DNA of 64,000 nucleotides from Eledone cirrhosa (Eukaryota): contig OZ024742.1 of assembly GCA_964016885.1 (NCBI GenBank), forward strand, positions 170,748,001 through 170,812,000, given 5' to 3'. The position numbers were made by a program, and so were the translations under genes. The notes beneath the pieces were generated by a model. That model saw only the letters and a program-made list of their open reading frames with translations, did no database searches and had not been told where the DNA came from. Below are positions 1,894-60,059 of this stretch, in pieces (the first letter of the stretch is position 1; every line of letters starts with the position of its first letter).

Positions 1894-1913
1894 AATACTA
1901 CTACTAATAATAA

Positions 1914-2898
1914 TGATTTCATTTATTAGCCACAAGGGCCGACATGTAGGGGACAATACAAAGACAGGGACAGTGGGGGTTTACAATAAGGTCGAGTAAA
2001 AGTGCACAATGGCAATACTAATTTAACAATGAAGATATAAAAATATAAAATAAACTGTGCATTAATATAACAAAATAAATTCCCCTATAGGGGGTGGACG
2101 ACCCAGGGTGACTCAGGTACCCCACCAATCCTGAACCACCCTGCGCTTCTAGGGAACCCAGGGAGAGCACGCCTCTCCTCAAGTTAGCTAGTCTATAAGC
2201 GCATGGTCAGAGTAGGCCCATTCACACGAGCCATTCTCGCCACATTCACCCACCTTTTAGCAAATGTACTGGGGGGTAGCACTTCTCTCTTCACCCTCTC
2301 CTTCCTTTCGAGGTGAAACTTGAAGAAGTTGATGAGGGATTGGCCGAAGAGAAAAGTGACTGTCTTCAGTCCTTTTAATCTGGTCCACCATATAACCTCT
2401 TTTGCAACGGCCACCAGACAGAGAAAAATTTCCTGCTCTTCCTGACCTAAGGAAGGCGGCGGGTCGATCTTCACTATAGACTCGGCCAATAGCCGGATCC
2501 GTTCCACACGCGACAGTAGCTGTTCGACATAACTCCACAAGTCAGTAATGCACGGACATTGGACAAGTGCGTGCAGAACGGTTTCGTCGCTCTGTGCGCA
2601 TCTTGGGCAGGTCCGTCTGACAGCACTTCCGTGCCTGTAGAGTTTATCCCGAACCGGCAGTGCCCCCCGGTAGCACTGCCGAGGGAGGTATTTCTGGAAA
2701 TTGTCCATCGTCCCCGCCTCGAAAGTCCTCCGGTACAGACTGGTCAGTTCGAATTCGTCGAGGCCGAAAGCTTCTCCGAGTGCGTCATCGCACTTGCCCA
2801 TCACTAATCTTCTATAGAACTCGAGAGTGGAAGTTCCACTGATCGCATTGCCCACCTGGTAGAGGGCAGTGAGTGCCTGGCAACATTCCAGGTGCCAT
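1914..2898 (-). mobile_element. Tx1/L1-clade LINE 3' fragment ending in (ATT)n
   Basis: ORF ending at 2193 (GALPVRDKL, TCPRCAQSDETVLHALVQCP) is homologous to the ORF2 C-termini at 22.8, 26.3 and 59.3 kb. The 3' end reads GCCCTTGTGGCTAATAAATGAAATC(ATT)n. Confidence 0.88.
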
Positions 2899-16714: not shown

Positions 16715-16860
16715 TTTTGAGTTTATGTTGGTTGTATACCACACCTCAGTATGCAGACTGGAGCACTCGACGAAGTGCGCAGGTTGGTTTGGTTACTCCG
16801 GAGTAATGTAAAATAAAGTTAAATAAAAAGTCAAATGTTTAAAATTTAGCTTCGTTTATT

Positions 16861-16915
16861 ACTGCTATATATATTTCAGTGACAGCCATCTTTGGCTGTG
16901 ACCTCTTCAGGCAGT
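16861..16915 (-). ncRNA. Minimal type I hammerhead ribozyme, left arm
   Basis: Reverse complement of 17109-17163. Confidence 0.85.
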
Positions 16916-17108
16916 TTGAATTAGTGTGGTATAGACAAGTACAAATGTTGTTGAGGTGTATAATTTTGTCAATACTCTGATATGCCCAGTTCCTGGTTGG
17001 GTTGTTATCAGTGAAATAACAACCCAATCAGGAACTGGGCATATCAGAGTATTGACAAAATTATACACCTCAACAACATATGTACTTGTCTATACCACAC
17101 TAATTCAA

Positions 17109-17163
17109 ACTGCCTGAAGAGGTCACAGCCAAAGATGGCTGTCACTGAAATATATATAGCAGT
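17109..17163 (+). ncRNA. Minimal type I hammerhead ribozyme, right arm
   Basis: ACTGC-CTGAAGA-GGTCACAGCCA AAGA TGGCTGTCACT-GAA-ATATATAT-A-GCAGT, followed by AATAAA. Confidence 0.85.
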
Positions 17164-17236
17164 AATAAACGAAGCTAAATTTTAAACATTTGACTTTTTA
17201 TTTAACTTTATTTATATATATATATAAGACAGTTAT

Positions 17237-17638: not shown

Positions 17639-17861
17639 GTGGGATGGAAACATGTGTTAAATTTGCTCGGTAAGTTTTGTTTAAATTTCTTTAGAAATTC
17701 GTCATTGTGAACTTTTATTTTTATACCAATTTGTAGAAGGACTGACAGGTCAAATTTTGATCTGGTCAGTCTCCCAAAATATCGTGCCCCTCAGGGCAAA
17801 AACATCCAAAATATTTTCGAAAAGTTTTTGCAAAACACTTTTTAAAAACAATAAAAAAAAA

Positions 17862-19727
17862 ATGGCCGAAGCAAAGGCACCTACTTCTTTGTCAAAACAA
17901 GAAGATGGGAAGGGAAAGCCATGTCTACTTGACCAGCAGGTAGTAGCAGACATGGACAGAGGAATGCCAACATTATCGCCTCAACATTTAGAAGAGGAAC
18001 AAGCTTCAGCTGCTTGTAAGCAACTGAACACATCTGACGTCACAAACGTCACATGTATCCACACACAGAAGGAAGTATGTGTAGCGAACACTAATACCAC
18101 CACAACCAACAACAACAACACAATAAATGAGAACAACAACAACACAAGAAAAGGAATCAGTGGCAACACAACGAATGAAACCATCATCACCACCAACAAG
18201 AAAAATAACAAAATTTCATTTGCAGCAACCGTTACTAAGCAACTGGATTTTAAATACTACTCCATGGATATTTCACAAAAGTCCCAATATTTGGAAGAAG
18301 CTTCCAACTATGTGACGTTTGAGGGAGACACCCCACACATACACATACCCCCACAAGTAAGAGAGATGACACAGAAAAAGAAGCTAATTTATAGAACAGC
18401 TGACATCATAACCAAAAAACCCATAACGCTCCCACCAAGCACTATTGAAGCTGCACTAAAAGATATCAAGCCAGACGTGGCATACCACCAAAGAGGTAAA
18501 CAGTATGGAAGTGTGTCAGTGCTCTTTAAGAGCGAAACTCTGGCACAAAAGACACTCGGTTCACACAATAAAAACGGATCAACACATCTTCTTCCCCACA
18601 TACATGGGAAGAGATCCTACAAAATAAAAATAACCAGGATCCCAGCAGAGGTCAACATATGGTGGATCCTACGCTGCATCCTGAAGAAGGATGAGGACAC
18701 CCTCCTATCTGTAGACAGGACAGACCGGCATAACTGGTTTGGAACCTGGATCGAGGTTTTGGTACAAATGAGACCAGAGAGAGTTGAAAAAATACCGGAC
18801 AGGATCGTCCTTGAGGAAGATGTCATCTCCATTTTAGTGGAGGGAAAAAGACCTCAGTGCCATAAGTGTGGGAAAAACCACATACTTAAAGGCCTTTTGC
18901 CCTCACTTAAACAAACCGAGGACAAACAAGGTGTTGTTACCAACACCAAAACTCCAACATCAACACTCCAAACCAAACACAACACAAAAACCTGCAACAT
19001 CCACTCCCACACCACCACAGACCAGAGACAACCACACACACAAAATCCCACTGAAAAACCCTCCATTGCCTCTCCCCCCCCCCCTGTCAAATACGTCCAC
19101 AAACACCTGCACAAACACTCCACCACACAACATACCCCTCCCATCTACCCCTGATTCAGAAGTCTCAGACACGGGAACCTCTACATCTCTAAGTGAGAAC
19201 GAAGAGGAACCCCAAAAATCCAAAAAACAAAAAAGACACAAAAACATCTACAGAAAAGACGCACACACTCAACCCCACCATAAACACACCGCCACAAACG
19301 ACAAACACACCAACAACACAATCACCACCAGCACAACCAAACACTTCACCAACAAAATAATCACCCACACCACCACAATCACAAACCCCAATCACAAAAA
19401 GAAAACTACAAACAAACATTACACAGAAAAAACAAACCACATTACACATACATAAAAACAAGAAACAAAGAACTGGTGGAAAGGACCCCCACAATACAAA
19501 CGGAAGGGAAAACCTTCCCCACCAACGACCCACCCCCAAACCTCAACCTTATCAGGGTAACAACCCTACAGTATGAAACTTCAAAAGAGAACTTCCCACA
19601 TGATGTGGGCCCCCCTTGCCAAAAGCCCCTTAACTGTGTCCTGCTAAAAGGATTCCCTCCTTCCCCAAACACCACCAATCTGGACATGGAAATCGAACAA
19701 CCCGACCTCCAGGAAACGAAAAGGTAA
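17862..19727 (+). pseudogene. Tx1 ORF1 (gag-like, CCHC knuckle), frameshifted
   Basis: ISFAATV motif, CHKCGK..LKAFCP knuckle across a frameshift, a T/K/H-rich linker and a C-terminal block shared with copy D. Confidence 0.8.
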
Positions 19728-19767
19728 GTGTTCCTTCCTTTTCTCTCCTTAACTCTTCTTCACCAAC

Positions 19768-22700
19768 ATGGCGACTATACAAGCTGGATGTTTGAATGTA
19801 CGTGGCATGGGTATGTCCTGGAAACAGGGCCAGCTTTTAAATGATCTCAGGTCACATTGTATAGATGTGATAGCCATCACCGAGTCCAGGATTCACGACA
19901 AGCAGCAGCTAACCCGCATGTTCGATGATTTTGAGATCTACGCATCTCTCTGTCAGCCAGGAGGTGGAGGGGAGTTGCTGTTCTGTTTCGAAAAAACTTG
20001 GATTTCAAAATACAGACGATTCACTTGGACCCGGAGGGCAGCCTGGTGGTCCTGGACGTGAATGGTAATGAAGGTGGAGCTTTCAGACTGGTGGCCGTAT
20101 ATGCCCCGACTGGGACATCGCGACCAGAGTTCTTCAAGCGTCTGGAGCCATTCCTGGGAACGTCTCGCTCCTTAGTGTTAGCGGCGGACTGGAATGGCAT
20201 CTTAGACGCACTTGGGACTATGTAGGGGCTTGTGATAATAGAGGGGGGTGTAATAGCCTCAAAAATCTCATCAGCCAATTCCAACTGGCTGATAGATATC
20301 GACTAGACATTCCAAGTACACCACTGTGGACGTGGAGCAACCGCACTGCGTCTTCTAGATCGTATTTAGATAGATTTTTAATTAGACAGAATGATAAGGA
20401 AACATTAAGTTGTCCACAGATGCACATGGTTGCCTATTCAGACCACAAATTAGTCACCTGCGTAGTCAGCATTGATAGAACACATAGACAGGGACCCGCA
20501 TACTGGAAGCTAAACATGTCGCTCCCGGCGCGTTAGGCCTACAGTAAACGGATTAGCACCTTAGTTAAGTGCCAGTTGACGGGGGCAATCGTCAAAAACA
20601 GGTGGTGGAGCTCTCTCAAGAGAGCAATTAGAATAGAATCGATAGCATTTAGCAAGGAAGTAACATTTAGCAAGGAAGAAAAAAACTAAACTGAAAAGGA
20701 ACTGATAGCTTAAACAGAAGAGGCCCTTAGGAATCGCAGTACAGCTGACGTGCTAGTGGCGAGAACGGCACTAGACCAGTTCTTCAATGTGAAACACGAA
20801 GGTTGATTGTCAGAATTAGAACACGTGCTCTAAGAAACGAGGGAGCCAAAGCTGTTAGCTGGGCCCGAGTGGCAGAGGTGAAAAGTGGCAACAAATCCAC
20901 AATTCGGTCTTTGCAAAACAAAGATGGACGCATTATACTTGAATCCAAGCAGATGTGCACGGCCTTCCAGCAGCATTTTGCACAACTGTTCGGGCAAAGC
21001 GCTACATCGAGCGAGGTGATGGACTTCAGCTCCTACCTCGACGGCGTACCGCGACTCTCGAGCACGGATGCGGAGAGCTGCGAAAGGCCGATCACAGCGG
21101 GCGAAATAGAAGACGGCCTAGGCCGCTGCGTGAAACGCAAATCCACCGGTTTAGATGGTTTACCCTATGAGATTTACATAGACATGCCAGACTTGTTCTC
21201 TGGCGTCCTCGAAACGGTCTACTGCAACTGGCAGCATAACGGGAGGATTCCCAGTTCTGTAGGCAGAGGCGTAGTAACGCTGATCAGAAAAGATGAGAAC
21301 AAGGGGGATGAGATAAGCAATTTAACTCAACACAGAGTTAAAGATTTTGGCTAAGGTGTTAGCAGCAAGGCTGGCGCTTGTCGTCGAGAACCTGGTAGGG
21401 GAAGCCCAAACGTGTGCAATCCCGACCAGGTCCATACACGACAACCTCCACCTCATGCGATACATCATGGAGAGGGTAGGGTGTAAACCTGGCTTCGGTG
21501 GGGCTCTGATCAATTTAGATCAGTCATAGGAATTTGATAGGGGCGACCATCAATACTTGGAAGCAGTTCTTAAGGCGGCCGGCTTCGGTCCCGTCTTCAG
21601 AGGCTGTATCGCTGCCATGCATACCAACATCTGCTCGGCAGTCAAGGTGAATGGCTACCTATCAGAGCCATTCCAAATCATGCGTTCCATCCGTCAGGGA
21701 TGCCCTCTCTCCTCCATTCTGTATGTACTGACTCTCGAGCCGTAACTGCAGAAGATGGAGCTGTTGCAGGGCATCCCGATCGAACCAGGACTGCGGAAAG
21801 CAGCGTCGGCCTGTGCCGACGACATAACCGTAATGGTGTCGAAAACCTCGGAAATCAGGGTAATCGGCAACCTATTACAGGAATACGAAACGTTGACAGG
21901 AGAAAGACTAAACCCAAACAAGTCTGTCGGTTTGCAACTCGGCACATGGAGAGGAAAACCCATGCCTTCCGATAATGTCGTTGGACACTGGACGGAAGGA
22001 CCGGTGAAATTGCTCGGGGTCTGGTTCGGTCCAGACCTCCAGGTGGACAAGAACTGGAACGAGGTCAGAAGTGGGCTGAGTGCAAACTCTCCTTGAAAGG
22101 TCGAGTGGAGGTGGCGAACACTTACATTGCGTCCGTCATCTACTACCGCTTCACAGTCGTGCCTTGCCTCCACAAATACCTTACCAAAATAGAACGCCTA
22201 CTCTTCAAGTTCCTCTGGAAGAAACAGGCTCCATTGGTGAGGAGATCCATCTGCTGTCAACACCCTTCTAACGGAAGGCTGAGTATGCCGTGGCTGATGA
22301 TGCGCAAACATGCGCTGAGGCTACGCCATCTCCAGGTATTCCTGACCGGTGAACCGGTGTGGCTGTCGTATGTGAGACAAGCTCTTCCACACTCGTCTCA
22401 TTAACAGAGCTGCAGTCCTGGGTCAAGCGAAGACCGAAAATGGGTGCCTGGCATCTCGAGTGCCTACAGGCGCTCACAGCCCTCTACCAAGCGGAAACGG
22501 CAATCAGCGGAGACACCACTTCGACATTCTATATGGGATTAGTGCGACGACGTTCTCGGGGAAACTCTAGGCATCGAGGAGGACGAACTGACCAGTCTGT
22601 TCGGGAGGACTTTCCGTCCAGGACCTATGGATAACTTCCAGAGGTCTCTGGCCTGGTAGTGCTACCAAGGAGCTCTACCAGTTCGAGACAAAATCTACAG

Positions 22701-23154
22701 GCACGGACACCTTGGCAGGGATCCTGCCAAAAGGACCTGTCCAAGATGCGAGCTGGACATCGAAACCGTTCTGCACGCAATTGTTCAGTGCTCAGGGGTG
22801 ACCGACCTGTGGAATTATGTCGAACAGCTGTTGTCACGTGTGGGACGCATCCAGTTGTCAGCCGAGTCTATCGTGAGGATCAGCCCGCTGCCTTCATTTA
22901 ATAATGAAGGAGAGGCGATTTTCCTCTGCCTGGTGGTTATGACGAAAGAGGTAATATGGTGGACGAGGTTAAAAGGACTGAGGGCAAACACCTCTCTCTC
23001 CGGACAACAACTTACCCCTTTCTTTAAGTATCACTTCAGAAGGAAGGTGAGAGTGGAGAGAGAGGTGCTACACCCCAGTAAATTCGCTGAAAGGTGGGCG
23101 AATGTGGCAAAAATGGCCCGAGTGAATGGGCCTTCTCTGTATATAAACCTGTAG
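19768..23154 (+). pseudogene. Tx1 ORF2 (APE endonuclease, RT, C-terminal Zn motif), disrupted
   Basis: LNVRG, AVYAP, DWN, SDH, KSTGLDGLP, IRQGCPLS and CADD motifs with multiple stops and frameshifts. Confidence 0.92.
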
Positions 23155-23410
23155 GTTGAGGAAGATAAACAGAGGGTAGACGGGAACACCTACATAAGGT
23201 GTTCCTGGTGTTGAGGGCTGTTCTATCCACGGGGTCTAAAACAACCTTGCAGTAACGTTCCCCCCTACTGGGGATTTCAATTGCTATTTTATTATATATA
23301 GTTTATTGTTATTTATTAATGTTAAAGTTATATGATTTTTATGTAAAACCCCCGCCGTCACATCTTGTAATGTCCCATTTTTGTACGGCCCTGTGGCAAG
23401 TAAAGAAAGA

Positions 23411-23503
<93 letters not shown>

Positions 23504-23508
<5 letters not shown>

Positions 23509-26500
23509 CGCATCTCTCTGTCAGCCAGGAGGTGGAGGTGGAGTGGCTGTTATGTTTCGGAAGAACCTGGACGTCGGAGTACAGCAAGTACACTTGGACC
23601 CGGAGGGTAGACTGGTAGTCCTAGACGTGAACAGTATCGGAGGTGGAGCCTTCAGACTGGTGGCCGTTTATGCCCCGACCGGGCAATCGCAATCACGACC
23701 AGACTTCTTTAAGCGTCTAGAGTCTTTTCTGGGAACGTCTCGCTCCTTACTTTTAGTGGGGGACTGGAATGGTATCCTAGATGCACGATGGGACTATGTG
23801 GGAGCATGTCCCAGTAGAGCGGGGTGCAACAGCCTCAAAACTTTAATCGGCCAATTCCAACTGGCCGATAGGTATCGACTGGATTTCCCGACTGCACCAC
23901 AGTGGACGTGGGTAAACCGCAGTGGGACATCTAGATCGTATTTAGATAGGTTCTTCATTAGAGAAAGGGACAAGGATATGTTAAGCTGTCCACGAATGCA
24001 CATGGTTGCCTATTCAGATCACAAGTTAGTCGTCTGCTTAGTCAACCGTGATAGAATACATAGACAGGGTCCCGGATACTGGAAGCTGAACGTGTCGTTG
24101 CCGGCACGTAAAGCTTACAGTGAACGGATAAGTAAACTAGTCAAGCAACAGTTAACGGGAGCCATCGTCAACAATAGATGGTGGTACTCTCTCAAGAAAG
24201 CAATTAGAATAGAATCGATAGGGTATAGCAGAGAGTTAGCCTTAGAGAAAAACAGAATAGAAAGAGAACTAGTAGCCAAGGTAGAGGAGGCACTTAGAAG
24301 TGGTAACGCGGCTAGAGTGTTAGCGTCGAGAACGGCACTGGACCAGTTCTTCGATGCGAAACACGAAGGCTGCGTAGTCAGAAGCAAAACACGTGCTCTA
24401 GGAAACAAAGGAGCGAAAGCTGTCAGCTGGGCCCGAGTGGCGGAGGCAAAAAGTGGCAACAAGTCCACGATTCGGTCTTTGAAAGACCAAAACGGACGCG
24501 TGCTACTTGACCCCAAGCAAATGTGCGCGGCCTTTCAGCGGCACTTTGCGCGACTGTTTGAGCAGAACGACGGTGAGCCGAACGGGGCAATGGACTTTAG
24601 TTCATACCTCGACGGCCTGCCGCGTCTCTCGAACATGGACGCCGAGTTCTGCGAAAGACCGATCACGGACACTGAGATACGGGACGCTCTGGGCCGCTGC
24701 GGGAAACGCAAGTCACCCGGTCTAGATGGTCTACCCTACGAATTTTACATAGGCATGCCGGACTTGTTCTCTGGCGTCCTCGAAGCCGTCTACTGCAATT
24801 GGCAGCAGAACGGGAGAATTCCCAGTTCTGCAGGCAAGGGCGTAGTAACGCTGATCAGGAAAGACGAGAACAAGGGGGACGAAATTAACAACTTCAGGCC
24901 CATAACTCTGCTCAACACAGAGTTAAAGATTTTGGCCAAGGTGCTAGCGACGAGGTTGGCGCTTGTCGAGAACCTGGTGGGGAAAGCGCAAACGTGTGCA
25001 ATCCCGACCAGGTCCATACACAACAACCTCCACCTCATGCGATACATTATAGAGAGGGTGGGTAGTAAACCCGGCTTCGGTGGGGCTCTGATCAACTTGG
25101 ATCAGTCTAAGGCATTCGATAGGGTCGACCATCGATACTTGGAAGCGGTTCTCAAGGCGGCCGGTTTCGGTCCCGTGTTCAGAGGATGGATCGAGGCGAT
25201 GCACACCAGCATCTGCTCGAGGGTCAAGGTGAACGGCTACCTATCGGAGCCGTTCGCAATCACGCGTTCCATTCGACAGGGATGCCCTCTCTCCTCCATT
25301 CTGTATGTATTGACTCTAGAGCCACTACTGCGGAAATTGGAGCTGTTGCAGGGCATCCCCCTAGAACCGGGACTGCGCAAAGCGGCGTCGGCTTATGCCG
25401 ACGACGTGACAGTAATGGTGTCGAGCACCTCGGAAATCGGGGTGATCGGCAACATACTGAAAGAATACGAAACGCTGACGGGAGCAAAACTAAACCCAGA
25501 CAAGTCTGTCGGTTTGCAACTCGGTACGTGGAGAGGCAAACCGATGACATCCGACAGCGTCGTTGGACGCTGGACGGACGGACCGGTGAAATTGCTCGGG
25601 GTCTGGTTCGGTCCAGACCTCCAGGTGGAGAAAAACTGGAACGAGGTCACGGCCAAGGTGTTTGCACTCACTCAGAAGTGGGCAGAGTGCAAACTGTCCT
25701 TGAAAGGTCGAGCGGAGGTGGCGAACACTTTCATAGCGTCCGTCATCTACTACCGCTTGACTGTCGTGCCTTGTCCCCGTGAACACCTCGCCAAGATGGA
25801 ACGCATGCTCTTCCAGTTTCTGTGGAAGAAGCAGGCTCCGCTGGTGAGGAGATCCGTCTGCTGTCAGCACCCTTCCAACGGAGGGCTGGGAATGCCGTAG
25901 CTGATGATGCGCAAACATGCGCTGAGGCTGCGGCATCTCCAGGTATTCCTCACCGACCCCCAACCGGTGTGGGCACCGTTTGTGAGACAGGCTTTCCCAC
26001 AGCTCGTCTCGCTAACGGAGCTGCAGTCCTGGGTGAAGAAAAGACCGAAAACGATGGGCGCCTGGCACATTGAATGCGCTCAGGCGCTCACAGTCCTCTG
26101 GAAAGCGGGCGCAGCAATCAGTGGAGACTCCACTTCGACATTCTATAGAGGGATTGTACGTTACAAGGGCGACGACGTGCTCGGAGAGACTCTGGGCGTC
26201 GAAGACGATGAGCTCACCAGTATGTTTGGTAGGACTTTCCGCCCGGGACCTATGGACAACTTCCAGAGGTCCCTGGCCTGGCAGTGCTACCGAGGAGCTC
26301 TACCGGTTCGTGACAAGATCTACAGGCACGGACGCCCTGGCAGGGATCCTTCCAAGAGGACGTGTCCAAGATGTGCGCAGGACATTGAAACAGTTCTGCA
26401 CGCAATTGTACACTGCCCGGGCGTAAGCGACCTGTGGAACTATGCAGAACAACTGCTGTCGCGTATGGGACAAATACAGTTGACTACCGAGTCCATAGTA

Positions 26501-26779
26501 AGGATCAAACCGCCAGACTCTTTCAAAAACGAAAGAGAGGCGGTTTTCCTCTGTACGGTGGCTATGGTGAAAGAAGTTATATGGTGGACGAGGTTGAGAG
26601 GACTGAGGACAGATGCCTTTCTCTCCGGACAACAATTGATTCCATTCTTTAAGTATCACTTTAGAAGGAGAATCAGGGTGGAGAGAGAGGCACTGCACCC
26701 CAGTAAATTTACTGAAAGGTGGGTGAATGAAGCGAAAATGGCCCGAGTGATTGGGCCTTCTCTGTTTATAAGCCTGTAG
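23504..26779 (+). pseudogene. Tx1 ORF2, nearly intact (one TGG>TAG stop at 25898-25900, N-terminus missing)
   Basis: GDWN, SDH, KSPGLDGLP, FRPITLLN, DQSKAFD, RQGCPLS, YADD and CPRC...HAIVHC lie in one frame over about 1090 codons. Confidence 0.93.
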
Positions 26780-27012
26780 GTTGAGGAAGAGAGCAAAAGG
26801 AAGAAAGGAGCACTTGCACAACACGCTCCTTGAGTTGAGGGTTGTTCTATCGACGGGGTATTAAACAACCCATTTGTGGCGCCTCCCCCCTATTGGGGAT
26901 TTCGATTGTTGAAATTGTTTGTTTTTATATTTTTTACACGACTGTATGTAAAATCCCCGGCATGTCTTTCTATTGTCCCCTTTCTTGTTGCGCCCTTGTG
27001 GCTAATAAAGAA
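23504..27012 (+). mobile_element. 5'-truncated Tx1 LINE, copy B, bounded by (ATCT)n
   Basis: Starts inside the APE domain and ends GCCCTTGTGGCTAATAAAGAA-(ATCT)n. Confidence 0.93.
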
Positions 27013-34849: not shown

Positions 34850-35930
34850 TAGAGCTTCCTGTCAAACAGAACCCAACATGTTGTAGTTGAGGGAGTCAAA
34901 TCAAGCCCAGCCAAAGTCAGTAGTGGGGTCCCACAAGGCACTGTGTTGGGCCCACTTCTCTTCATCATCTATATTAATGACATCACTGACATCATCAAAC
35001 ACAGCAACATTAAAATTTTCGCTGATGATTCCAAGCTCCAAAAGGTCATCAATGGCGTGGATGACCGGATAAGCCTTCAGTCAGACCTACTGGCTGTTAC
35101 CCAATGGGCAGAAAAGAACAACATGTTACTGAACGAAGACAAATTCGAACTGATCCACTTTGGAAAAGAGGATGCTCTGAAACTCCCGTACTCCCTTCCC
35201 TCCGGGGAAACTCTCGTGGCATCTAACAACATCAGAGACTTGGGAGTAACCGTGGACAGCAACATAAGCTGGACCACGCATATAAGCAGCAAAGTTGACA
35301 TGGCCCGCAGAATGTGTTCCTGGATCCTCAGAACCTTCCAGTCGAGAGATTCCCGCACCATTATCCTTCTCTTCTCTACTTTCGCCCGACCACACCTTGA
35401 ATACTGTTGTCCACTGTGGTCTCCCCACACGAAACAAAGTATCATGAAACTTGAAGCTCCTCAAAGGGCAATCACGAAAAAGATAGATGGCATGTCAGAC
35501 CTTGACTACTGGGGTCGATTAGAAAACCTGAAACTTTACTCACTCCAACGTCGCCGTGAGCGTTATATTATCTGCATGATGTGGAAAATGTTCCATCATC
35601 ACTGCCCAAATGATGTTGGCATCGCCTTCAAGATACAACCAAGGCTTGGGCCCCGTGCTATCCGTCCCATTCAAAAATCTAAATCGCAACTCATAACAAC
35701 AATACGGCACAATTATTTCACCTCAATCGGCCCTGCTCTCTTCAACATCACACCAGGACACGTCAAAACAGAAACTGACCACACAAAATTCAAGAAGTCT
35801 TTGGACAAATTCCTCCAAGTAATCCCGGACAAACCACCCACACCCGGATATGTCTCCGCAAACAGTAATTCTCTTCTCGAATGGGCCATGGTGCCCAAAT
35901 CCTGAATTGAAAGACTTCGCCAGGTGGTGC
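34850..35930 (+). mobile_element. 5'-truncated CR1-clade LINE (RT C-terminal half, open frame to 35905)
   Basis: [39 protein letters not shown] and LQRRRER motifs, then a 25-nt 3' UTR running into (TA)n. Confidence 0.92.
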
Positions 35931-43621: not shown

Positions 43622-43727
43622 AAATATGTATAATAAAATTTAATTGCTCACAAGAATATCTATTTTGTTAATATTTGAATTAATAATTCAAATATTAACA
43701 AAATAGATATTCTAGTGAGCAATTACA

Positions 43728-43790
43728 TTTTATTATACATATTTCAGAGGTACTGAATCAAGTTCAACAGTACGTCCTCGTCAGATAAAA
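43728..43790 (-). ncRNA. Minimal type I hammerhead ribozyme
   Basis: TTTTAT-CTGACGA-GGACGTACTG...CAGTACCTCT-GAA-ATATGTAT-A-ATAAAA. Confidence 0.8.
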
Positions 43791-44609
43791 TAAAATGATA
43801 CATGACATACCCTGAGATGTTAGATGGTTAAGATTTAATCAAGGTAGTGATTAACTTATGAGAAAACTCAATATTTATACCCTAATATTGAGAACATGTG
43901 AAAACGTAATAGAATCAATAGAGAGAGTGTGAGTAAGAAAAACATTGCCTTAATGCAACAGTTATAGAGTTTTTAAAATTTGAAATACTACTATAGAACT
44001 ATAGAGGAAGACATATCTGGAGTTATCATTTATTTAGTATTTAGCTTGAGAAGACAACTGACAGATAAGTAAAGAGAGGGAGAGACAAAGGGGAGTAATT
44101 TATGCTCAAAGTTCCTTTAGGCACACATAAACATATATAGCTTTGGCGGTTAAATTTCAAAATATTTAATTTATGTTATTTTCGGGTAAAGAATCAAAAT
44201 TTTAGGTTTTAAAAGTTGATGGTTATTTGTATTAATTTTATAATATAATTGTGTTAAATTTCTAAAATTCAAAGTTTTATGAAAACAAATTTAAAGGATT
44301 TACGAGGCCCGCGAAAGAAAAAATTTAAAGTTCAATAGTCTCACAAAGGTAATCTTTAACAAAATTACTTGTAACACTGACAACATTTTCTATAATATAA
44401 TTTATAAAATATTTACAGTTATAACTATTAAGGAATTTATTGTTAAATAGTTATAGTGCCTAAAGTATTAGCAGTTCTATAATTAAACCTGAAGAGGTCA
44501 GAGTTTTTAGCTATATATATATATATATTATGTGTGTGTATTGATCATAATATCAGGACTATAATTTATTATTTGTTCATATATTATATTAAGTCATTAT
44601 ATTAGTTCT

Positions 44610-47295: not shown

Positions 47296-48015
47296 GCTGA
47301 AAACTCTGACCTTTTAGGTTTAATTATAGAACTGCTAATACTTTAGGCACTATAACTATTTAACAATAAATTCCTTAATAGTTATAACTGTAAATATTTT
47401 ATAAATTATATTATAGCAAATGTTGTCAGTGTTACAAGTAATTTTGTTAAAGATTACCTTTGTGAGAATATTGAACTTTAAATTTTTTCTTTCGCGGGCC
47501 TCGTAAATCCTTTAAATTTGTTTTCATAAAACTTTGAATTTTAGAAATTTAACACAATTATATTATAAAATGAATACAAATAACCATCAACTTTTAAAAC
47601 CTAAAATTTTGATTCTTTACCCTAAAATAACATAAATTAAATATTTTGAAATTTAACCGCCAAAGCTATATATGTTTATGCGTGTCTAAAGAAAATTTGA
47701 GCATAAATTACTCCCCTTTGTCTCTCCCTCTCTTTACTTATCTGTCAGTTGTCTTCTCAAGCTAAATACTAAATAAATTATAACTCCAGATACGTCTTCC
47801 TCTATAGTTCTATAGTAGTATTTCAAATTTTAAAAACTCTATAACTGTTGCATTAAGGCAATGTTTTTCTTACTCACACCCTCTCTATTGATTCTATTAC
47901 GTTTTCACATGTTCTCAATATTAGGGTATAAATATTGAGTTTTCTCATAAGTTAATCACTACCTTGATTAAATCTTAACCATCTAACATCTCAGGGTATG
48001 TCATGTATCATTTTA

Positions 48016-48078
48016 TTTTATCTGATGAGGACGTACTGTTGAACTTGATTCAGTACCTCTGAAATTTGTATAATAAAA
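48016..48078 (+). ncRNA. Minimal type I hammerhead ribozyme
   Basis: TTTTAT-CTGATGA-GGACGTACTG...CAGTACCTCT-GAA-ATTTGTAT-A-ATAAAA. Confidence 0.78.
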
Positions 48079-48204
48079 TTTAATTGATCACAAGAATATC
48101 TATTTGAATTAATATTAATAACTCAGGAAAATATTTCTTGTAGAGTGCATCCAATCTACTGTAAAACTCATTCTTTGATGTACTCATTGAATCTTGTTTA
48201 ACTC

Positions 48205-48354: not shown

Positions 48355-49166
48355 ATTTACATATACATAAAGTCATAGATATATATGTGGAAACCGGTCA
48401 CGTTGTGGCTCAATGAAGAATTAATAAATTAAATAATCAGAGCAATATATCATAAATCATGTCCTTAGAATTATTAGATAAAATATATACCATTTCCTCT
48501 CCCAATTAGCATAATTAACCATATAAAAAATCAATTAGACCAGGCTATAAGAATAAAGGCTCCTATGAAGAAATTTTCGACAAATAACCGAAAGCGGCCT
48601 CTTCGCGGTGACCCCAATAGAGTATTTATCCAACATTTCAACAGCATGTAGAAACTGACTAAATATACCGTCAACCATACACAATTAGGTGGAAATTTAA
48701 ACTTAGAAGTAACGTGTACATACCGTAATTATATCTCTACCATGGTTTCGTCCGTATTTTTAGATATCCTATTGTTAGGATGTATCCAGAGTAACAGACT
48801 CATCAGGAGAAAACTCAAGATATATCCTAACAATACATCCTAACAATAGGATATCTAAAAATACGGACGAAACGATGGTAGAGATATAATTACGGTATGT
48901 ACACGTTTCTTCTAAGTTTAAATTTACACCTAATTGTGTATGGTTGACGGTATATTTAGTCAGTTTCTACATGATGTTGAAATGTTGGATAAATACTCTA
49001 TTGGGGTCACCGCGAAGAGGCCGCTTTCGGTTATTTATCGAAAATTTCTTCATAGGAGCCTTTATTCATATAGCCTGGTCTAATTGATTTTTTATATGGT
49101 TAATTATGCTAATTGGGAGAGGAAATGGTATATATTTTATCTAATAATTCTAAGGACATTTATTCA

Positions 49167-49170
<4 letters not shown>
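48352..49170. mobile_element. Fold-back PLE-type module with ~335-bp arms and ~95-nt left tail
   Basis: About 48448-48785 is the reverse complement of about 48834-49170, with (TA)n on both sides. Confidence 0.88.
48734..48810 (-). ncRNA. Type I hammerhead ribozyme with intact core
   Basis: TCTC-CTGATGA-GTCTGT...ACGGAC-GAA-ACCATGGT-A-GAGA. Confidence 0.87.
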
Positions 49171-49221
<51 letters not shown>

Positions 49222-51789: not shown

Positions 51790-54752
51790 CTCAAAAATCT
51801 TATCAACCAATTCCAACTAGCTGATAGATATCGACTAGATTTCCCAAGTGCACCACTGTGGACGTGGAGCAACCGCACTAGATATTCGAACAGGGACCCA
51901 GATACTAGAGGCTAAAGCCTACAGTAAACAGATTAGCACTTTAGTTAAACGCCAGTTGACGGGGCCATCGTCAACAACAGGTAGTGGTGCTCTCTCAAGA
52001 GAGCAATTAAAGTAGAATCAATATCATCTAGCAAGGAATTAGCTTTAGAAAAGAACAAAACTGAAAAGGAACTGGTGGCCAAAGTAGAAGAGGCAGTTAG
52101 GAATGGCAGTACAGCTGACGTGCTAGCGGCGAGAACGGCACTAGACCAGTTCTTCAAAGTGAAACACGAAGGTTATATTGTCAGAAGTAGAACACGTGCT
52201 CTGAGAAACGAAGGAGCGAAAGCTGTTAGCTGGGCCCGAGTGGCAGAGGCGAAAAGTGCCAACAAATCCACAATTCCGTCTTTGGCAGACAAAGACGGAC
52301 GCATGGTACTTGAATTCAAGCAGATGTGCATGGCCTTCCAGCAGCACTTTGCACAACTGTTCGAGCAGAGTGGTGCGTCGAGCGGGGTGATGGACATCAG
52401 TTCCTACTTCGACGGCCTACCGCGACTCTTGAACACAGATGTGAAGAGCTGTAAAAGGCCGATCACAGCGGGCGAAATAGAAGACACCCTAGGCTGCTGC
52501 GGGAAACGTAAATCACCCGGTTTAGAAGGTATGTCCTATGAGTTTTATATAGGCACGCCAGACATGTTCTCTGACGTCCTCGAAGTGGTCCACTGGCAGC
52601 AGAACGGAAGGATTCCCAGTTCTGTAGGCAGAGGCGTAGTAATGCTAATCAGGAAAGATGAGAACAAAGGGGATGACATAAGTAACTTCAGGCCCATAAC
52701 TCTGCTCAACAGAGAGTTGAAGATTTTGGCCAAGGTGTTAGCAACGAGGCTGGTGCTCGTCGTCGAGAACCTGATGGGGGAAGCGCAAACGTGTGCAATC
52801 CCAACCAGATCCATGCACGTCAACTTCCACTTCATGCCATACCTCATAGAGAGGGTTGGTTGTAAACCTGGCTTCGGTGGGGCTTTGATCAATTTAGATC
52901 AATCTAAGGCATTTGAGAGGGTTGACCATCAATACTTGGAAGCGGTTCTCAAGGCGGCGGGTTCGGTCCAGTCTTCAGAGGCTAGATCGCTGCCATGCAC
53001 AGCAATATCTGCTCGGCAGTCAAGGTGAATGGCTACCTATCGGAGCTATTTCAAATCATGTGTTCCATCCGTCAAGGATGTCCTCTCTCCTCCATTCTGT
53101 ATGTTCTGACTCTCGAGACACTACTACGGAAGTTGGAGCTATTGCAGGGCATCCCGATGAAATCAGGACCGCGGAAAGCAGGGGTCGGCCTACGCCGACG
53201 ACATGACCGTAATGGTGTCGAAAATCTTGGAAATCGGGCAACTTATTACAGGAATACGAAACGTTGACAGGAGCAAAACTAAACCCGAACAAGTCTCTCA
53301 GTTTGCAACTCGGTACATGGAGAGGCAAGCACATGCCGCCCGACAGCGTCGTTAGACGCTGGACGGAGGGGGACCGGTGAAATTGCTCGGGGTCTGGTTT
53401 GGTCCAGACATCCAAGTGGGCAAAAACTGGAACGAGGTCACGGCGAAGGTGTGCAAACAATCCTTGTAAGGTCGAGCGTAGGTGGCGAACAATTACATAG
53501 CGTCCGTCATCTACTTCCGCTTGACAGTCGTGCCTTGACCCGCGATCACCTCACCCGGATGCAGCGTCTTCTCTTAAAATTCCTTTGGCAGAAACAGGCT
53601 CCGTTAGTGAGGAGATCAATCTGCTGCCAAAACCCTTCTAGCGGAGGGCTGGGCATGCCGTGGCCGATGATGCGCAAACACGCGCTGAGGCTACGCCATC
53701 TCCAGGTGTTCCTGAACGGTGAACCGGTGTTTTTGTCGTTTATGAGACGAGCTTTTCTACAACTCGTCTCACTAACAGAGCTGCAGTCCTGGGCAAGTGA
53801 AGACCGAAAATGGGCACCTGGCACCTCTAGTGCATTCAGGCGCTCACAGCCCTCTACCAAGCTGAAACGACAATCAGTGGAGACTCCACCTCTACATTCT
53901 GTAGGGGATTACTGGAGGATAAGTGTGACGACGTTCTCGAGGAAACTCTAGGCATCGAGGAGGGCGAACTGTCGAGGGCCTATGGATAACTTCCAGAGGT
54001 CTCTGGCCTGGCAGTGTTACCGAGGAGCTCTACCAGTTCGAGACAAAATCTACAGGCACGGGCGCCCTGGCAGGGATCCTGCCAAAATGACCTGTCCAAG
54101 ACGCGAGGAGGACATTGAAACCGTTCTGCACGCAAATGTTCAGTGCCCAGGGTTGACCGACCTGAGGAATTATGTCGAACAGCTGCTGTCACGTGTGGGA
54201 CACATCCAGTTGTCAGCCGAGTCCATTGTGAGGATCACCCTGCCGCCTTCATTTAAGAATGAAGGAGAGGCGGTTTTACTCTGTCTGGTGGCTATGGTGA
54301 AGGAGGTAATATGGTGGACGAGGTTAAAATGACTGAGGGCAAACAACTTTCTCTCCAGACAACAACTTATCCCCTTCTTTACGTACTACTTCAGAAGGAA
54401 GGTGAGAGTAGAGAGAGAGGTGCTACACCCCAGGAAATTCGCTGAAGAGTGGGTGAATGTGGCGAAAATGGCCAGAGTGAATGGGCCTTCTCAGAATATA
54501 AACCTATAGGTTGAGGAAGATAAACAGAAGGAAGACGGGAACACCTACAAAACGTGCTCCTGGTGTTGAGGGTTGTTCTATCCACGGTGTGTAAAACAAC
54601 CCCGCAGTAACGCCCCTCCCCCATTGGGGATTTCGATTGTTTTATTTCTAGATAGTCTATTGTCATCCATTATTGTTAAACATTTTATGTAAAACCCCGC
54701 CGTCACATCTTTTAATGTCCCATTTTTGTAAGCCCTTGTGGCAAATAAAGAA
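51790..54752 (+). mobile_element. 5'-truncated degenerate Tx1 LINE, copy C
   Basis: ORF2 remnants FRPITLLN, DQSKAFE and RQGCPLS. The 3' UTR resembles copy A, the start follows CTATCTATC and the end runs into (ATCT)n. Confidence 0.9.
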
Positions 54753-54828
<76 letters not shown>

Positions 54829-57800
54829 CCTGATCGAAGACGTGTGTCACTTCGCTGCGAAGCTTTTACAGATTTACTATGCAAAAAACTAAGTTTATTG
54901 TTGAATTTGATATTGTTGTTTAGCTTGACCCCTCATCTGGGCTTTCAGACGGTCGGTTAACACATTTTCGTCCATTTCTGGGGCGAAATTTGCATTTGAA
55001 AAATTTGCTGTGAAAAATTATTTACATTTTAAATTCAGTAATGGATACCATTACTACTACACATTCAACTATGAATCCCACGCCCACTAAGAAAGGTGGT
55101 GGAGAGGAAGTAAGAGTACAAAGCTCGCAGCCTTCCCCCCTCACCTTTTTGAAAGACGTTGTGAACGTCGACATGTTTGAGAAGCATGTAAACATGGGAT
55201 CAAACCCGAACAGTAATAACAACACCAACCAGAACAACAATGACAACAACACCACAACCAACAACAGCAACAATGACAACACCAACACCATGAAAAATGC
55301 AAACGGCACCAACAAGAACAATATCAATAACAAGGACAACAACAACAACAATGATGAAAACAACACCAACACCATCAACAGCAACAAGGAAGACACCAAC
55401 ACCAAAATGAACAACCCCACGACCAAAATTTCTTTTGCACAAACTGTCCAAAAGACAAATGTATACACTAATTGACATTTCGAATGTCAAGGAACTGTTA
55501 AAAGACGCAAGGCAATACGTGATTTTGGGGGAGAATAGCGCTTTTAGCATCACTTCTTCCCACGAATTGCGTAGAGAAACTGTCCTGAAAACTATAGTTT
55601 TCAGGACAATCTCAAACACAACCAGAAAACCAGCTCAATTAACGCAAAATGAAATTGAGCTGGTTCTAAGAAACTCCATGAAAGATATTACCTTCATACA
55701 GAAGGGAAAACTCTTCGAGAGTTTATCAGTGATAATGAAAGACCAATTGAAGGCACAGAAATATTCTGTGACGCCAATTGTGTCCCCCACTACACCTTTT
55801 TCCCCACATATATGGGAAAAAGGACACAAAAAATAAGGGTGTCAAGCATTAAACCAAATATAAATATTTGGTGGATATTATGTGGCTTCATCAACTGTGA
55901 TGAAGACACATTAATTTCAATAGGAAAGTCCTCCAGGGGCGTATTTGGTGGTACTAGCCTAGAAGTTCTGGTCCAAATGTGACCAGAACGAATAGCTAGA
56001 ATACCACAACGTGCTAATCTGTTTACTGTAGGCTTTACGCGTCGGGATCGACATGTGACCAGAACGAATAGCTAGAATACCACAACGTGTGCCTCTGGAC
56101 GGAATTTCCTATATAAACATTTCCGTTGAGGGTAGGAGCCTTCATGTTACCACTGTTTAAGCAGTGGTCACCTGAGGGCTTCCTGTCCACAGTTAACTGC
56201 GCTGAAAAAGGCACTAATGCCGACGCCCAACACAACAACACAACCACCACCACCACCACCACAACAACAACAACAACACAAAAATAACCAAAACAAATCA
56301 AACCGCAAACACAGTCCCACCCAGCCCCTCCCCACCTAAAACAACTCCCAATACACCCGCAAGCACAACAGCTCCCCAAAACGTACCCCTCCCCAATCAC
56401 ACAGATACCACAACCGACGAGACCCCCTCATCATCACTCAGTGATGATGAAGGAGAACCCCTCCGCTTCAAAAGAAAGAAAAAAAGACATAACACGAACA
56501 AAAAGCAACAAACACACAGCCACCAACACAAACAACACAAATATTACAAACAAAATTCCCCCTCCTGAAAACAAAACAACGACAACACTCCAAACGCAAA
56601 CACCTACAACAAAACGAAAACACACACAAGAACAACAGACAAAAAAACCAACACAACACAACAAGAACATTACATAAATACACATACATAAATACTGAAA
56701 ACAAAATTTTAATGGAGGTCATCTCCAAAAACCCTGCGGTGAAAACTAAAGGGAAACTTTTACAAGCTGTTTGGACAAACCAAACTTAAAAATGATTAGG
56801 GTTCCGAAGGACACATATAGGTCCATAAAAGAAAACTTTGATAAGGACGTGGGGAATTCATGCGTCAAACCCATGAACCGCGTCCTTTTGAAATGTTTCC
56901 CCACCCCCACGCAGACACCCCACCAGACACCCCCTCTCCATCAAACATCTCCGTCCCCACCCCGCCAGACACCACCACCCTACCAAACACCTCCTCCAAC
57001 ACCCCCATGGACATTGTGCAGCCTGGTCTCCAGGAAGCGAGGAAGTAAGTGAATTCTTTCCTCTTCTTTTCTAACTTTTCCTCACCAGCATGACCAATAT
57101 AAGAGTCGGATGTGTGAATGTGCGCGGCCTGGGGATGCTCTGGAAACAGGGAAAACCCTTAAACGATCTCAGGTCGCACAGTATGGATCTGGCAGTCATT
57201 TGCGAGTCCAGGATCCACAGCGAGCGACAACTGGCCCCCATCTTCGACGACTTTGAGATCTACGCAACTCTCTGTCAGCCGGGAGGTGGGATCGGGGTTG
57301 CCGTTTTGCTGCGGAAACACCTGGACCTCGTAACACAGACGGTACATCTGGACCCGGAGGGTCGACTGGTGGTCCTAGACGTCAGCAGTAGTGAAGGTGG
57401 AATCACGGCGAGACTTCTTCAAGCGTCTGGACACTTTTCTGGAAACGTCCCGCTCCTTGCTTTTAGTGGGGGACTGGAATGGAATCCTAGATGCACGTTG
57501 GGATTATGTGGGAGCATGTCCCGATAGAGGGGGGTGTAACAGCCTCAAACAGTTAATCGGCCGATTTCAACTGGCCGATAGATACCGACTAGATTTCCCG
57601 ACTGCGCCACTGTGGACGTGGACGAACCGCAGTAGGACATTTAGATCGTACTTAGATAGGCTTCTAATTAGAGATAGGGATAGGGACATATTAAGCTGTC
57701 CACACATGTTCATGGTTACCTATTCAGATCACAAACTAGTCACCTACATAGTCAACCTTGATAGAACCCATAGACAGGGACCGGCTACTGGAAGCTGAAC

Positions 57801-59993
57801 CTGTCGTTACCGACACGTACAGCATACATTAGTCGGATTAGCACTTTAGTTAAGCAGCAGTTGACGGGGGAAATTGTCAACAACAGGTGGTGGTGCTCTC
57901 TTAAGAGAGCAATACATTAGAATCGATAGGTTTTAGTAAGCAACTAGCGTTAGATAGGAATAAGACTGAAAAGGAACTGGTAGATTAAGTAGAAGAGGCG
58001 ATTAGGAGTGGCAGAGTAGCTAACGTGCTAGCTACAAGAACGGCCCTGAATCAGTTTTTCGGCGCAAAGCACGAAGACTGCGTTGTCAGGAGTAAAATAC
58101 GTGCTCTGGGAAACGAGGGAGCCAAAGCTGTTAGCTGCGCCCGAGTGACAGAGGTGAAAATTGGCAACAAGTCCACGATTCGGTCTTTGAAGGACCAAGA
58201 CGGACGCGTGATACTTGAACCGGAGCAGATGTGCGCGGCCTTTCAACGGCACTTTGCACAACTATTCGGGCAGGGTGGCGCGCCGGGAGGGGTCCATACC
58301 TCGACGACCTGCCGCGACTCTCGGATGGGGAGGCGAAGTCTTGCGAAGGCCGTTTCGGCCGCTGAGATAGGGGACGCGCTGAGCCAATACGGCAAACGCT
58401 AATCGCCGGGTCTCGACGGTCTATGATCTTTACGTAGCAATGCCGGACTTGTTCTCCGATCTCCTCGAAGCGGTCTACTGCAACTGGCAGCAGATCGGGA
58501 GAATTCCCAGTTCTGTGACCAAGGGCGTAGTCACACTAGGAAGGACGAGAACAAGTGGGACCACATAGGTAACTTCAGGCCCATAACTCTGCTAAACACA
58601 GAGGTACAGATTTTGGTCAAGGTATTAGCAAAGAGGCTGGCGCTTGTCGTCGGGAACCTGATGGGAGAAGCGCAGACGTGCGCAATCCCGACCAGGTCCA
58701 TACACGACAACCTCCACCTCATGCGATACATCGTAGAGAGGGTTGTGTGTGAACCCGGCTTCGGTGGGGCCCTGATCAACTTGGATCAATCTGAGGCGTT
58801 CGATAGGGTTGACCACCATTACTTGGATGCGGTGCTCGCGGCGGCCGGCTTCGGACTCGTGTTCAGGGGCTGGATTGCTGCCATGCACAGCAGCAACATC
58901 TGCTCAGGGGTCAAGGTGAATGGCTACCTTTCGGAGCCGTTCCAAATCACGCGATCCATCCGACAGGGATGCCCTCTCTCCTCCCTTCTGTATGTACTGA
59001 CTCTAGAGCCACTACTGCGGAGGTTGGAGCGGATGTAGGACATCTCGTTGGAACTGGGACTGCGAAAAGTGGCGTCGGCCTACGCCGACGACGTGACAGT
59101 AGTGGTGTGGAGCACTTCGCAAATCGGGGAGATCGGCATCTTACTGAAGGAATACGAAAGGTTCACAGGAGCAAAGCTGAACCGGGACAAGTCCGTCGGT
59201 TTGCAACTCGGATCGTGGAGAGGCAAACCGATGCCTATCTACAGGCACCGACGCCCCGGCAGGGATCCTTCGAAGAGGTCGCGTCCAAGATGTCCGCAGG
59301 ACATTGAAACCGTCCTGCACGCAATTGTACACTGCCCGGGCATAACCGACCTGTGGAACTACGCAGAACAACTGCTGTCGTGTATGGGACAAATCCAGTT
59401 GACTGCCGAATCTATAGTAAGGATCAAACCGCCAATTTCTTTCAAAAAAGAAAGAGAGGCGGTTTTCCTCTGTATAGTGGCTATGGTGAAAGAGGTTATA
59501 TGGTGGACGAGATTGAGAGGACTGAGGACAGATGCCTTTCTCTCCGGACAACAACTCATTCCCTTCTTTAGATACCACTTTAGAAGGAGAATCAGAGTGG
59601 AGAGAGGGGCACTGCACCCCAGTAAATTTACTGAAAGTTGGGTGAATGTGGCAAAAATGGCCCGAGTAATTGGGCTTTCTCTGTATATAAACCTGTAGGT
59701 TGAAGAAGAGAGCAAAAGGAAGAAAGGAGCACTTGCACAACACGCTCTTGAAGTTGAGGGTTGTTCTATCGACGGGGTATTAAACAACCCATTTGTGGCG
59801 CCTCTTCCCTATTGGGGATTTCGATTGCTATAATTGTTTGTTTTATATTTTTTTTTACACGATTGTATGTAAATTCTGAGGATTTTACATACAATCGTGT
59901 AAAAAAATTTTAAAACAAACAATTATAGCAATCGAAGTCCCAATGTCTTTGTTTTGTCCCCTTTTCTTGTGCGCCCTTGTGGCTAATAAAGAA
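54829..59993 (+). mobile_element. Full-length-type Tx1 LINE, copy D, with ~770 bp missing at 59236
   Basis: ORF1 55041-57048 (ISFAQTV, CYHCLSSGHLRASC) and ORF2 57090-59698 (VNVRG, GDWN, SDH, YADD), bounded by (ATCT)n. Confidence 0.92.
57045..57088 (+). promoter_or_regulatory. Putative 44-nt GT-AG intron between ORF1 and ORF2
   Basis: GTAAGT...CTAAC-TTTTCCTCAC-CAG then CATG. An equivalent at 19724-19766 ends in CAA. Confidence 0.5.

Positions 59994-60059
<66 letters not shown>

Follow-up and report, generated by a model that had tools for sequence, protein, structure and literature searches.

A 64,000-nucleotide (nt) stretch of the Eledone cirrhosa genome (assembly GCA_964016885.1, contig OZ024742.1, positions 170,748,001 to 170,812,000, forward strand), hereafter the window, contains several copies of one long interspersed nuclear element (LINE) family, in microsatellite-rich animal DNA. 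Our analysis of the junction between the two open reading frames (ORFs) of this family showed that the ORF1 stop codon is embedded in a 5' splice donor-like sequence, directly followed by a pyrimidine tract of constrained composition. An earlier note on this DNA had described the spacer between the ORFs as intron-like. Comparison with related elements indicated, at the level of sequence, that the feature common to the clade is a donor at the end of an ORF, often with a tract right behind it, and that an acceptor before ORF2 is not common. Tentatively, by analogy to other retroelements and with slightly less than an even chance of being correct, we propose that the junction donor and tract would bind the U1 small nuclear ribonucleoprotein (U1), that the 43 nt would not be excised and that the RNA would be sorted into full-length and ORF1-only pools.

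The junction is present in copies A and D (all features on the plus strand unless stated otherwise). In copy A the donor-like GTAAGT lies at 19724..19729, where TAA (19725-19727) is the ORF1 stop, and immediately 3' of it follow a pure pyrimidine tract of 19 nt (19731..19749), a branch-point-like TTAAC (19749..19753) and CAA-C-ATG (19764..19770), the start context of ORF2, which is without an AG. The string described by the earlier note was reproduced exactly, as the GT at 19724 opens a stretch of 43 nt that reaches 19766, ends in CAA and is followed by C and the ORF2 ATG at 19768; the TTAAC and the pyrimidine richness (33 of the 40 spacer bases between ORF1 stop and ORF2 ATG) were likewise as reported. 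The homologous junction of copy D (57045..57092) consists of 44 nt from GT to CAG (57045-57088), with CTAAC at 57071-57075, then C and ATG (57090), giving a spacer of 41 nt from stop to start. Read in the frame of its conserved C-terminal domain, ORF1 terminates in both copies at the TAA within GTAAGT, and the second A of YTAAC lies 14 nt before the end of the stretch; the long tract is located 5' of YTAAC and only about 10 nt are found 3' of it.

The two copies had been taken to match in length and phase. Phase 2 is common to both, but the stretch of copy D is 44 rather than 43 nt long, and with AA on its exon side the joined codon would be AAC rather than AGC. Nor does a matching phase despite divergence provide independent support, because the last 13 ORF1 codons (19686..19724 in copy A, purine-rich, 27 of 39 nt shared with D), the spacer and ORF2 belong to one continuous homologous block (blastn 19685-21967 against 57006-59236, 76%); the shared phase is therefore inheritance and a single event.

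Against the U1-type consensus, the junction donor matched at 9 of 11 positions in copy A, where it was the top match among 276 GT sites, and at 7 of 11 in copy D. No other GTRAGT occurs on the sense strand of copy D (5,166 nt), only one other on that of copy A (5,774 nt), and none at all on those of copies B, C and E; these totals are ordinary, as 1.4-2.0 per copy are expected from shuffled sequence. By comparison, only 3 of the 207 sense TAA triplets in copies A-D have both a preceding G and a following GT, and of the 53 GTRAGT motifs in the window only three are followed by at least 16 pyrimidines in the next 20 nt, two of these being the A and D junctions. The placement of the donor at the junction is thus more than chance while the motif totals are not. 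An Rfam search of the window and five loci gave no matches, so none of the donor-like motifs derives from a known small nuclear RNA or spliced-leader target.

Between A and D, 14 of the 40 aligned spacer positions differ, in a low-complexity tract whose alignment register is uncertain by a base or two, and this is similar to the four-fold degenerate sites of ORF2 (65 of 211). Among differences involving a pyrimidine, C/T exchanges account for 12 of 13 in the spacer versus 12 of 37 at four-fold sites (P ~1e-5), and since the spacer differences are almost all of this kind, its composition was kept while its sequence drifted. The pyrimidine content of the junction tract is constrained, and the sequences suggest that donor and tract are likely under selection. 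A predicted hairpin pairs the purine-rich ORF1 end with the tract in both copies: a 7-bp stem in A joins 19718-19724 with 19737-19743 at pair probabilities near 1, and the predicted fold of the D junction reaches -12.4 kcal/mol. In 2,000 trials with a shuffled tract, 3% (A) and 37% (D) folded as stably as the native sequence, and an exchange of arms between A and D costs ~1 kcal/mol, indicating that any pyrimidine tract would pair about equally well with the ORF1 end. Compensatory changes in this hairpin appeared persuasive by eye but failed the shuffle and swap controls, and covariation was not established.

The CAA that ends the stretch in copy A had been attributed to decay after insertion, a claim that our counts do not bear out. 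Copy A has A at 11 of 206 non-CpG sites at which B, C and D agree on G, and 11 of 211 free four-fold sites have G in D and A in A; as these values are of the same size, they favour neither decay nor freedom of the site. A profile search with the ORF2 N-terminus returned 162 matches, and 41 of the 150 listed, picked by top rank and N-terminal offset, were examined. Ten of them possess residues before the ORF2 start position and are referred to here as read-through relatives; their records are decayed and their back-translation is ambiguous. Phenylalanine, leucine, serine and proline fill 47 of the 108 positions before the start in these ten, against 26% in ORF2, and six resemble translated pyrimidine-rich spacers. 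The residue preceding the start is Arg, which fits AG-N-ATG, in two of the ten and is not AG-compatible in the other eight. One relative (P0068) has Val-Ser 16 codons before the Met, fitting GTA AGT, and its ending L-F-L-T-D-M is one substitution from an A-type and two from a D-type ending; a second (P0031) ends in N-M, and both D-M and N-M are one step from, or equal to, the A-type ending. Indirectly, these endings lean towards CAA being a real variant rather than decay and, as far as sequence can tell, the acceptor before ORF2 is not conserved. As a separate observation, P0031 is a kinesin record in whose tail an Asn-rich ORF1-like stretch is joined to the ORF2 start of the window family, and it is likely a chimeric gene model.

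Proteins joining the two ORFs were also sought. None of the 41 examined relatives had an ORF1 C-terminus joined to ORF2, and fused forms were seen in none of 252 longer-protein candidates obtained with the ORF2 N-terminus of copy D and none of 329 obtained with an ORF1 C-terminal alignment, both being weak searches that covered few octopod proteins. A search with ORF2 of copy B gave 10 matches, and the eight examined were without an ORF1-derived N-terminus.

A scan of a bacterial genome collection identified 54 loci with related elements, 51 of which (L001-L050, L053) came from contigs of the metagenome-assembled genome (MAG) CAXXMW01. These contigs, part of a public species representative, carry intact eukaryotic LINEs in head-to-tail arrays that repeat every ~6.4-6.9 kb, and are likely eukaryotic (host) contamination of the bacterial MAG. 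ORF2 of the main MAG family has 44-45% identity to copy B, and the family was placed as sister group of the window family with a Shimodaira-Hasegawa-like approximate likelihood ratio test (SH-aLRT) value of 92 in a quick tree, in which SH-aLRT was the only support, the row winD_part was dropped for low coverage, long-branch rows were flagged and no named Tx1 reference was included.

With 410 of 499 four-fold columns invariant, the MAG copies are closely related to one another, and each of the following counts represents one event. GGTAAGT lies directly 3' of the ORF1 stop in all 57 anchored copies of the main family, the ORF2 ATG follows this stop after 14 nt (15 in one copy), and no acceptor before ORF2 was found at the anchored junctions; being placed after the stop, this donor cannot fuse the ORFs. 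A second donor, GTRAGT, is located 3' of the ORF2 stop position in each of 50 anchored copies, with A/G variation at +3 only, and the 20 nt behind it contain 13-17 pyrimidines in all nine representatives, including that of a second, 49%-identical family. A motif of this kind is expected by chance at 2-4.5% per site in local shuffles, and for the junction donor the values are 3-4.5% by local shuffle and 3.5e-4 per nt as element background; in four copies (L021, L025, L033 and L041) the junction and post-ORF2 donors are the sole sense GTRAGT motifs in 6.8 kb. The post-ORF2 module mimics the octopod layout, with donor, tract, often TAAC, and AG-N-ATG at 41-66 nt, in the absence of a conserved ORF: the distance from GT to AG is 41-66 nt, the ORFs that follow have 2-34 amino acids in eight representatives and 99 in one, and the frame is not fixed. 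A donor-tract-AG layout consequently need not be an ORF-joining intron. All 52 anchored MAG copies also possess a pyrimidine-rich YAG ~240-260 nt 3' of the post-ORF2 donor. At the junction of the second MAG family (L038, L045) a donor is absent; ORF1 and ORF2 of L038 overlap there in a TAATG (L038:3819-3823), and a full CAG-GTAAGT is found 41 nt after the L038 ORF2 stop. In-frame joining of the ORFs is thus not kept across related families, given the 14-nt spacer with its donor after the stop in one and the TAATG overlap in the other.

Under the proposed mechanism, U1 would bind the junction donor, possibly with the aid of a TIA-1-type factor bound to the adjoining pyrimidine tract; TIA proteins are described as binding downstream of donors and recruiting U1 there (PMC2964331). 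Most RNA would be kept at full length and protected, as in the plant copia element EVD, and a share would lose ORF2 by splicing from the junction donor to an acceptor close to the 3' end, yielding an ORF1-only message. ORF2 would be translated from unspliced RNA by termination-reinitiation at the ATG 40-41 nt past the stop, and CAAC or CAGC may be mere start context of ORF2. Binding of U1 is favoured because the MAG donors recur at ORF ends, at the junction where they could not fuse the ORFs and after ORF2 where no ORF follows in a fixed frame, and reinitiation fits because one clade includes a stop-start overlap (TAATG) as well as inter-ORF distances of 14 and 40-41 nt.

Several results weigh against this proposal. 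The second MAG family lacks the junction donor, leaving one of two independent relatives with it, and the lack of variation in the motif among copies of the main MAG family does not reach significance (P 0.25 for 7 sites). Window copies have neither a donor after ORF2 nor a conserved acceptor in the 3' untranslated region (UTR); the sole acceptor candidate they share is the ORF2 stop TAG, with 13-14 of 20 pyrimidines and under coding constraint. In copy D the donor, at its 7 of 11 consensus positions, is not the top GT site. The TAA/TGA of the post-ORF2 motif shares the ORF2 frame in the main MAG family, and two subfamilies terminate ORF2 there; selection for a stop codon can therefore account for part of the motif. 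The tract can have another source in the modelled hairpin with the purine-rich ORF1 end, no AATAAA was found near the junction in A or D, which weakens a protective role, and the branch-like YTAAC and the in-frame CAG of copy D are left to chance.

The junction may instead involve no splicing factor at all, which we regard as somewhat unlikely. G-TAA-GT would then be a last ORF1 codon with final G, the stop and its context, and CANC-ATG a start context; the tract would modulate reinitiation at ORF2, either as the 3' arm of a hairpin with the purine-rich ORF1 end or as an unstructured landing strip, and the whole would be an ordinary LINE spacer. The overlap of donor and stop codon in A and D, the in-frame stop after ORF2 in the MAG family, the missing donor in one of two relatives and the predicted structures (the stem of A and the fold of D) agree with such a view, as do fish L1 spacers with T-rich repeats, for which splicing goes unmentioned in the available portion of the source (PMC5381506). 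The hairpin is not specific, however, as the shuffle and arm-swap results indicated, and this reading leaves two donors without explanation: that of the MAG junction, located outside the ORF1 stop, and the out-of-frame CAG-GTAAGT behind the L038 ORF2. A quite different possibility is the mini-intron of the earlier note, in which a spliceosomal intron of 43/44 nt removes the ORF1 stop and joins the ORFs in frame in a minority of transcripts, as the intron of Ogre does, copy A having lost its AG after insertion. That reading was partly upheld, since donor motif and tract are constrained and copy D alone reads as a complete GT-AG intron: GTAAGT, CTAAC and CAG stand in order, the CAG is the best acceptor-like site of the copy (17 of 20 pyrimidines) and the join is exactly in frame. 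Spacers of 40 and 41 nt leave the unspliced frame free while the joined frame is kept, the two Arg-preceded read-through relatives fit, introns of 37-65 nt are described as rare cases in humans (PMC4463651), and the predicted hairpin could keep splicing rare. Against it stands the AG, which copy A and eight of ten read-through relatives do not support; among the eight, P0031 would be compatible with a spliced AA-C join, yet what precedes the join there is like the Asn-rich N-terminal stretch of ORF1 and not the C-terminus. Donor and branch are only 29-30 nt apart with the tract 5' of the branch, the typical animal minimum is given as ~50-90 nt (PMC13644364), and the MAG relative keeps the donor with no room for such an intron. 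Cis preference (PMC5860796) predicts spliced insertions, yet both full-length window copies keep the spacer, and the weak searches of few octopod proteins revealed no fusion of the ORF1 end with ORF2. We accordingly consider the mini-intron quite improbable.

A long intron is, in our view, less probable still. Here the tract, YTAAC and CAG would be the 3' splice site of an intron that starts in the 5' UTR and removes ORF1, giving an ORF2-only message, and the adjacent donor would be a signal of its own. The acceptor-like end in copy D lies 1 nt before the ORF2 ATG, and copy A has a strong 5' UTR donor (GTAAGT, 17670..17675), 30 nt from the 5' end of the element, which the earlier note had placed approximately and which is exactly located, as GGTAAGT, at 17669-17675. 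Donor-like GTRAG occurs in the 5' UTR of seven of nine MAG representatives scanned, and 5' UTR donors are used by human L1 (PMC5860796). No copy, however, has both ends, A having the donor and no AG, and D the AG but, at the aligned position, no donor; an acceptor before ORF2 is absent from the MAG family; and a T-rich TAG (17734..17736) only 67 nt 3' of the copy A donor, matched by a T-rich TAG at a like distance in D (54923), would be a nearer candidate acceptor for it. The most far-reaching possibility, that this lineage runs its life cycle through the spliceosome with donors at its ORF ends, a hairpin-guarded intron of 43-44 nt producing an ORF1-ORF2 fusion in octopods and only unspliced RNA being copied, is as doubtful as the mini-intron. 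If true, it would represent an Ogre-like expression strategy in a non-LTR (long terminal repeat) element, needing a break from cis preference, and the intron would be among the shortest in free-living animals.

Several MAG subfamily 5' UTRs contain TCG-GTAAGA, followed after ~175-200 nt by a T-rich CAG, and a complementary segment that could sequester this donor in a stem; copy A carries a comparable TCG-GTAAG at 17667. The 5' UTRs of five copies (L005, L026, L033, L031 and L001) are poorly alignable between subfamilies whose ORF2 sequences are 92-99% identical.

The window element itself is of a known kind, and the nearest precedents for its donors at ORF stops are the LTR elements Ogre and EVD/copia. 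It resembles L1/Tx1-clade LINEs in its CCHC ORF1, its ORF2 with APE endonuclease, reverse transcriptase and zf-RVT, its short spacer, 5' truncation and microsatellite flanks, and differs from them in the donor motifs at ORF stops. In Octopus vulgaris, 13 recently active L1-Tx1 families are reported (PMC13282606), and among the listed records of the open-access literature we found no description of donors kept at LINE ORF stops. In EVD one U1 site serves both to generate a short GAG message and to shield the full-length RNA, and in Drosophila copia a long intron is spliced (PMC5580714). The likeness to these Ty1/copia elements lies in a U1 site close to where the structural-protein ORF ends and in a first protein needed in far greater amount than the enzyme; in contrast, they are LTR elements with one polyprotein for which splicing and termination were demonstrated, while the donor of the window LINE lies on a stop codon and its use is inferred. 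Of what such a strategy calls for, the donor is present, and an acceptor-like site is kept in the MAG 3' UTR but was not identified in the window copies. Ogre shares a non-coding inter-ORF stretch with intron-like ends, the removal of which would join the ORFs (as in copy D), but this stretch averages 274 bp and its splicing was shown (PMC6317226), compared with 43-44 nt and a non-conserved AG here; furthermore, LINE enzymes copy the RNA from which they were translated. Human L1 is similarly a LINE with 5' UTR donors from which spliced RNAs are possible, and differs in that these RNAs were retrotransposed into genomic SpIREs (PMC5860796), none being seen among the two window and 57 MAG junctions. 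SART1 couples stop and start through UAAUG (PMC3894237), the same overlap as in the L038 family, as opposed to the spacer of 40-41 nt in the window family.

Termination-reinitiation has been proposed for human L1 and shown for SART1 (PMC5381506, PMC3894237), and how much ORF1 and little ORF2 protein are obtained from one RNA is, according to the same sources, unsolved outside mammals. A retroelement copied from RNA should lose usable donors, and their retention at ORF stops despite 56% divergence in ORF2 suggests that U1 or splicing is used in a regulated way.

Copy A (17640..23412) is a full-length, decayed LINE of L1/Tx1 type with two ORFs, flanked by (TATC)n tracts. Its ORF1 (17862..19727) is broken by frameshifts and homologous to that of the MAG relative (E 1e-10, 25% over 176 amino acids), and its ORF2 (19768..23154, final codon TAG) encodes endonuclease, reverse transcriptase and zf-RVT, interrupted by stops and frameshifts. 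Copies B (23504..27012, truncated at the 5' end in early ORF2) and C (51790..54752, 5'-truncated) are without the junction, copy D (54830..59995) is full-length and decayed with an internal deletion in ORF2, and copy E is 5'-truncated. An N-terminal APE endonuclease and a reverse transcriptase were both recognized in ORF2 of copy B (Pfam Exo_endo_phos 3.4e-10, RVT_1 8.6e-27), and among solved retroelement proteins ORF2 is nearest to LINE-1 ORF2p (E 4.5e-50), R2 proteins giving 1e-20 or weaker. The zinc knuckle of the window ORF1 is broken and has no Pfam match, while zf-CCHC is above the cut-off in the homologous ORF1 of the MAG relative (L005). Judged by its sequence, the element is an L1/Tx1-type LINE. 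The Tx1 subclade label is presumptive. Among named proteins, the best relative of ORF2 comes from Argonauta hians (59% identity), and the ESM Atlas yielded only generic endonuclease/reverse transcriptase clusters. The 3' ends of copies A-D carry (TATC)n and their 5' starts come after TATC units, tail and target being indistinguishable; copy E ends in a short TA/TATC stretch.

On inspection, the deletion in ORF2 of copy D, ~725 nt at 59236-59237, showed no GT-AG ends. ORF1 of the same copy has a short internal duplication (55970-56090). A sixth copy, F (1912-2897, minus strand), is more distant (70-73% to A-C), has an ATT repeat in place of TATC at its end, and is cut short on the 5' side by another repeat. 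A calicivirus-type UGGGA reinitiation motif in the MAG spacer was rejected because it varies between subfamilies, and a 2A-like peptide consensus at the ORF1 end gave no match. The distal part of the post-ORF2 module is predicted to pair with a stretch ~540 nt downstream, and the predicted long-range stem that closes ~540 nt of 3' UTR (L021:7274-7990; L038:7289-8020) differs in sequence between families. The last 30 nt are alike in window (23380-23412, 26980-27012, 54720-54752) and MAG (L005:1495-1540) elements and consist of GGCC...GTG(G/C)C followed by an AATAAA-like signal, the remaining 3' UTRs not aligning.

Other repeats of the window include a pair of inverted repeats (43691-44511 and 47296-48116) of ~800 nt, 97-98% alike and 2.8 kb apart, possibly a DNA transposon or foldback element. 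Long, near-perfect palindromic stretches occur at 48445-49174 (92% over 729 nt) and 16811-17213 (98% over 404 nt), and a reverse transcriptase fragment of another retroelement (34853-35905; Pfam RVT_1 1.8e-10) adjoins a 1.5-kb TA tract.

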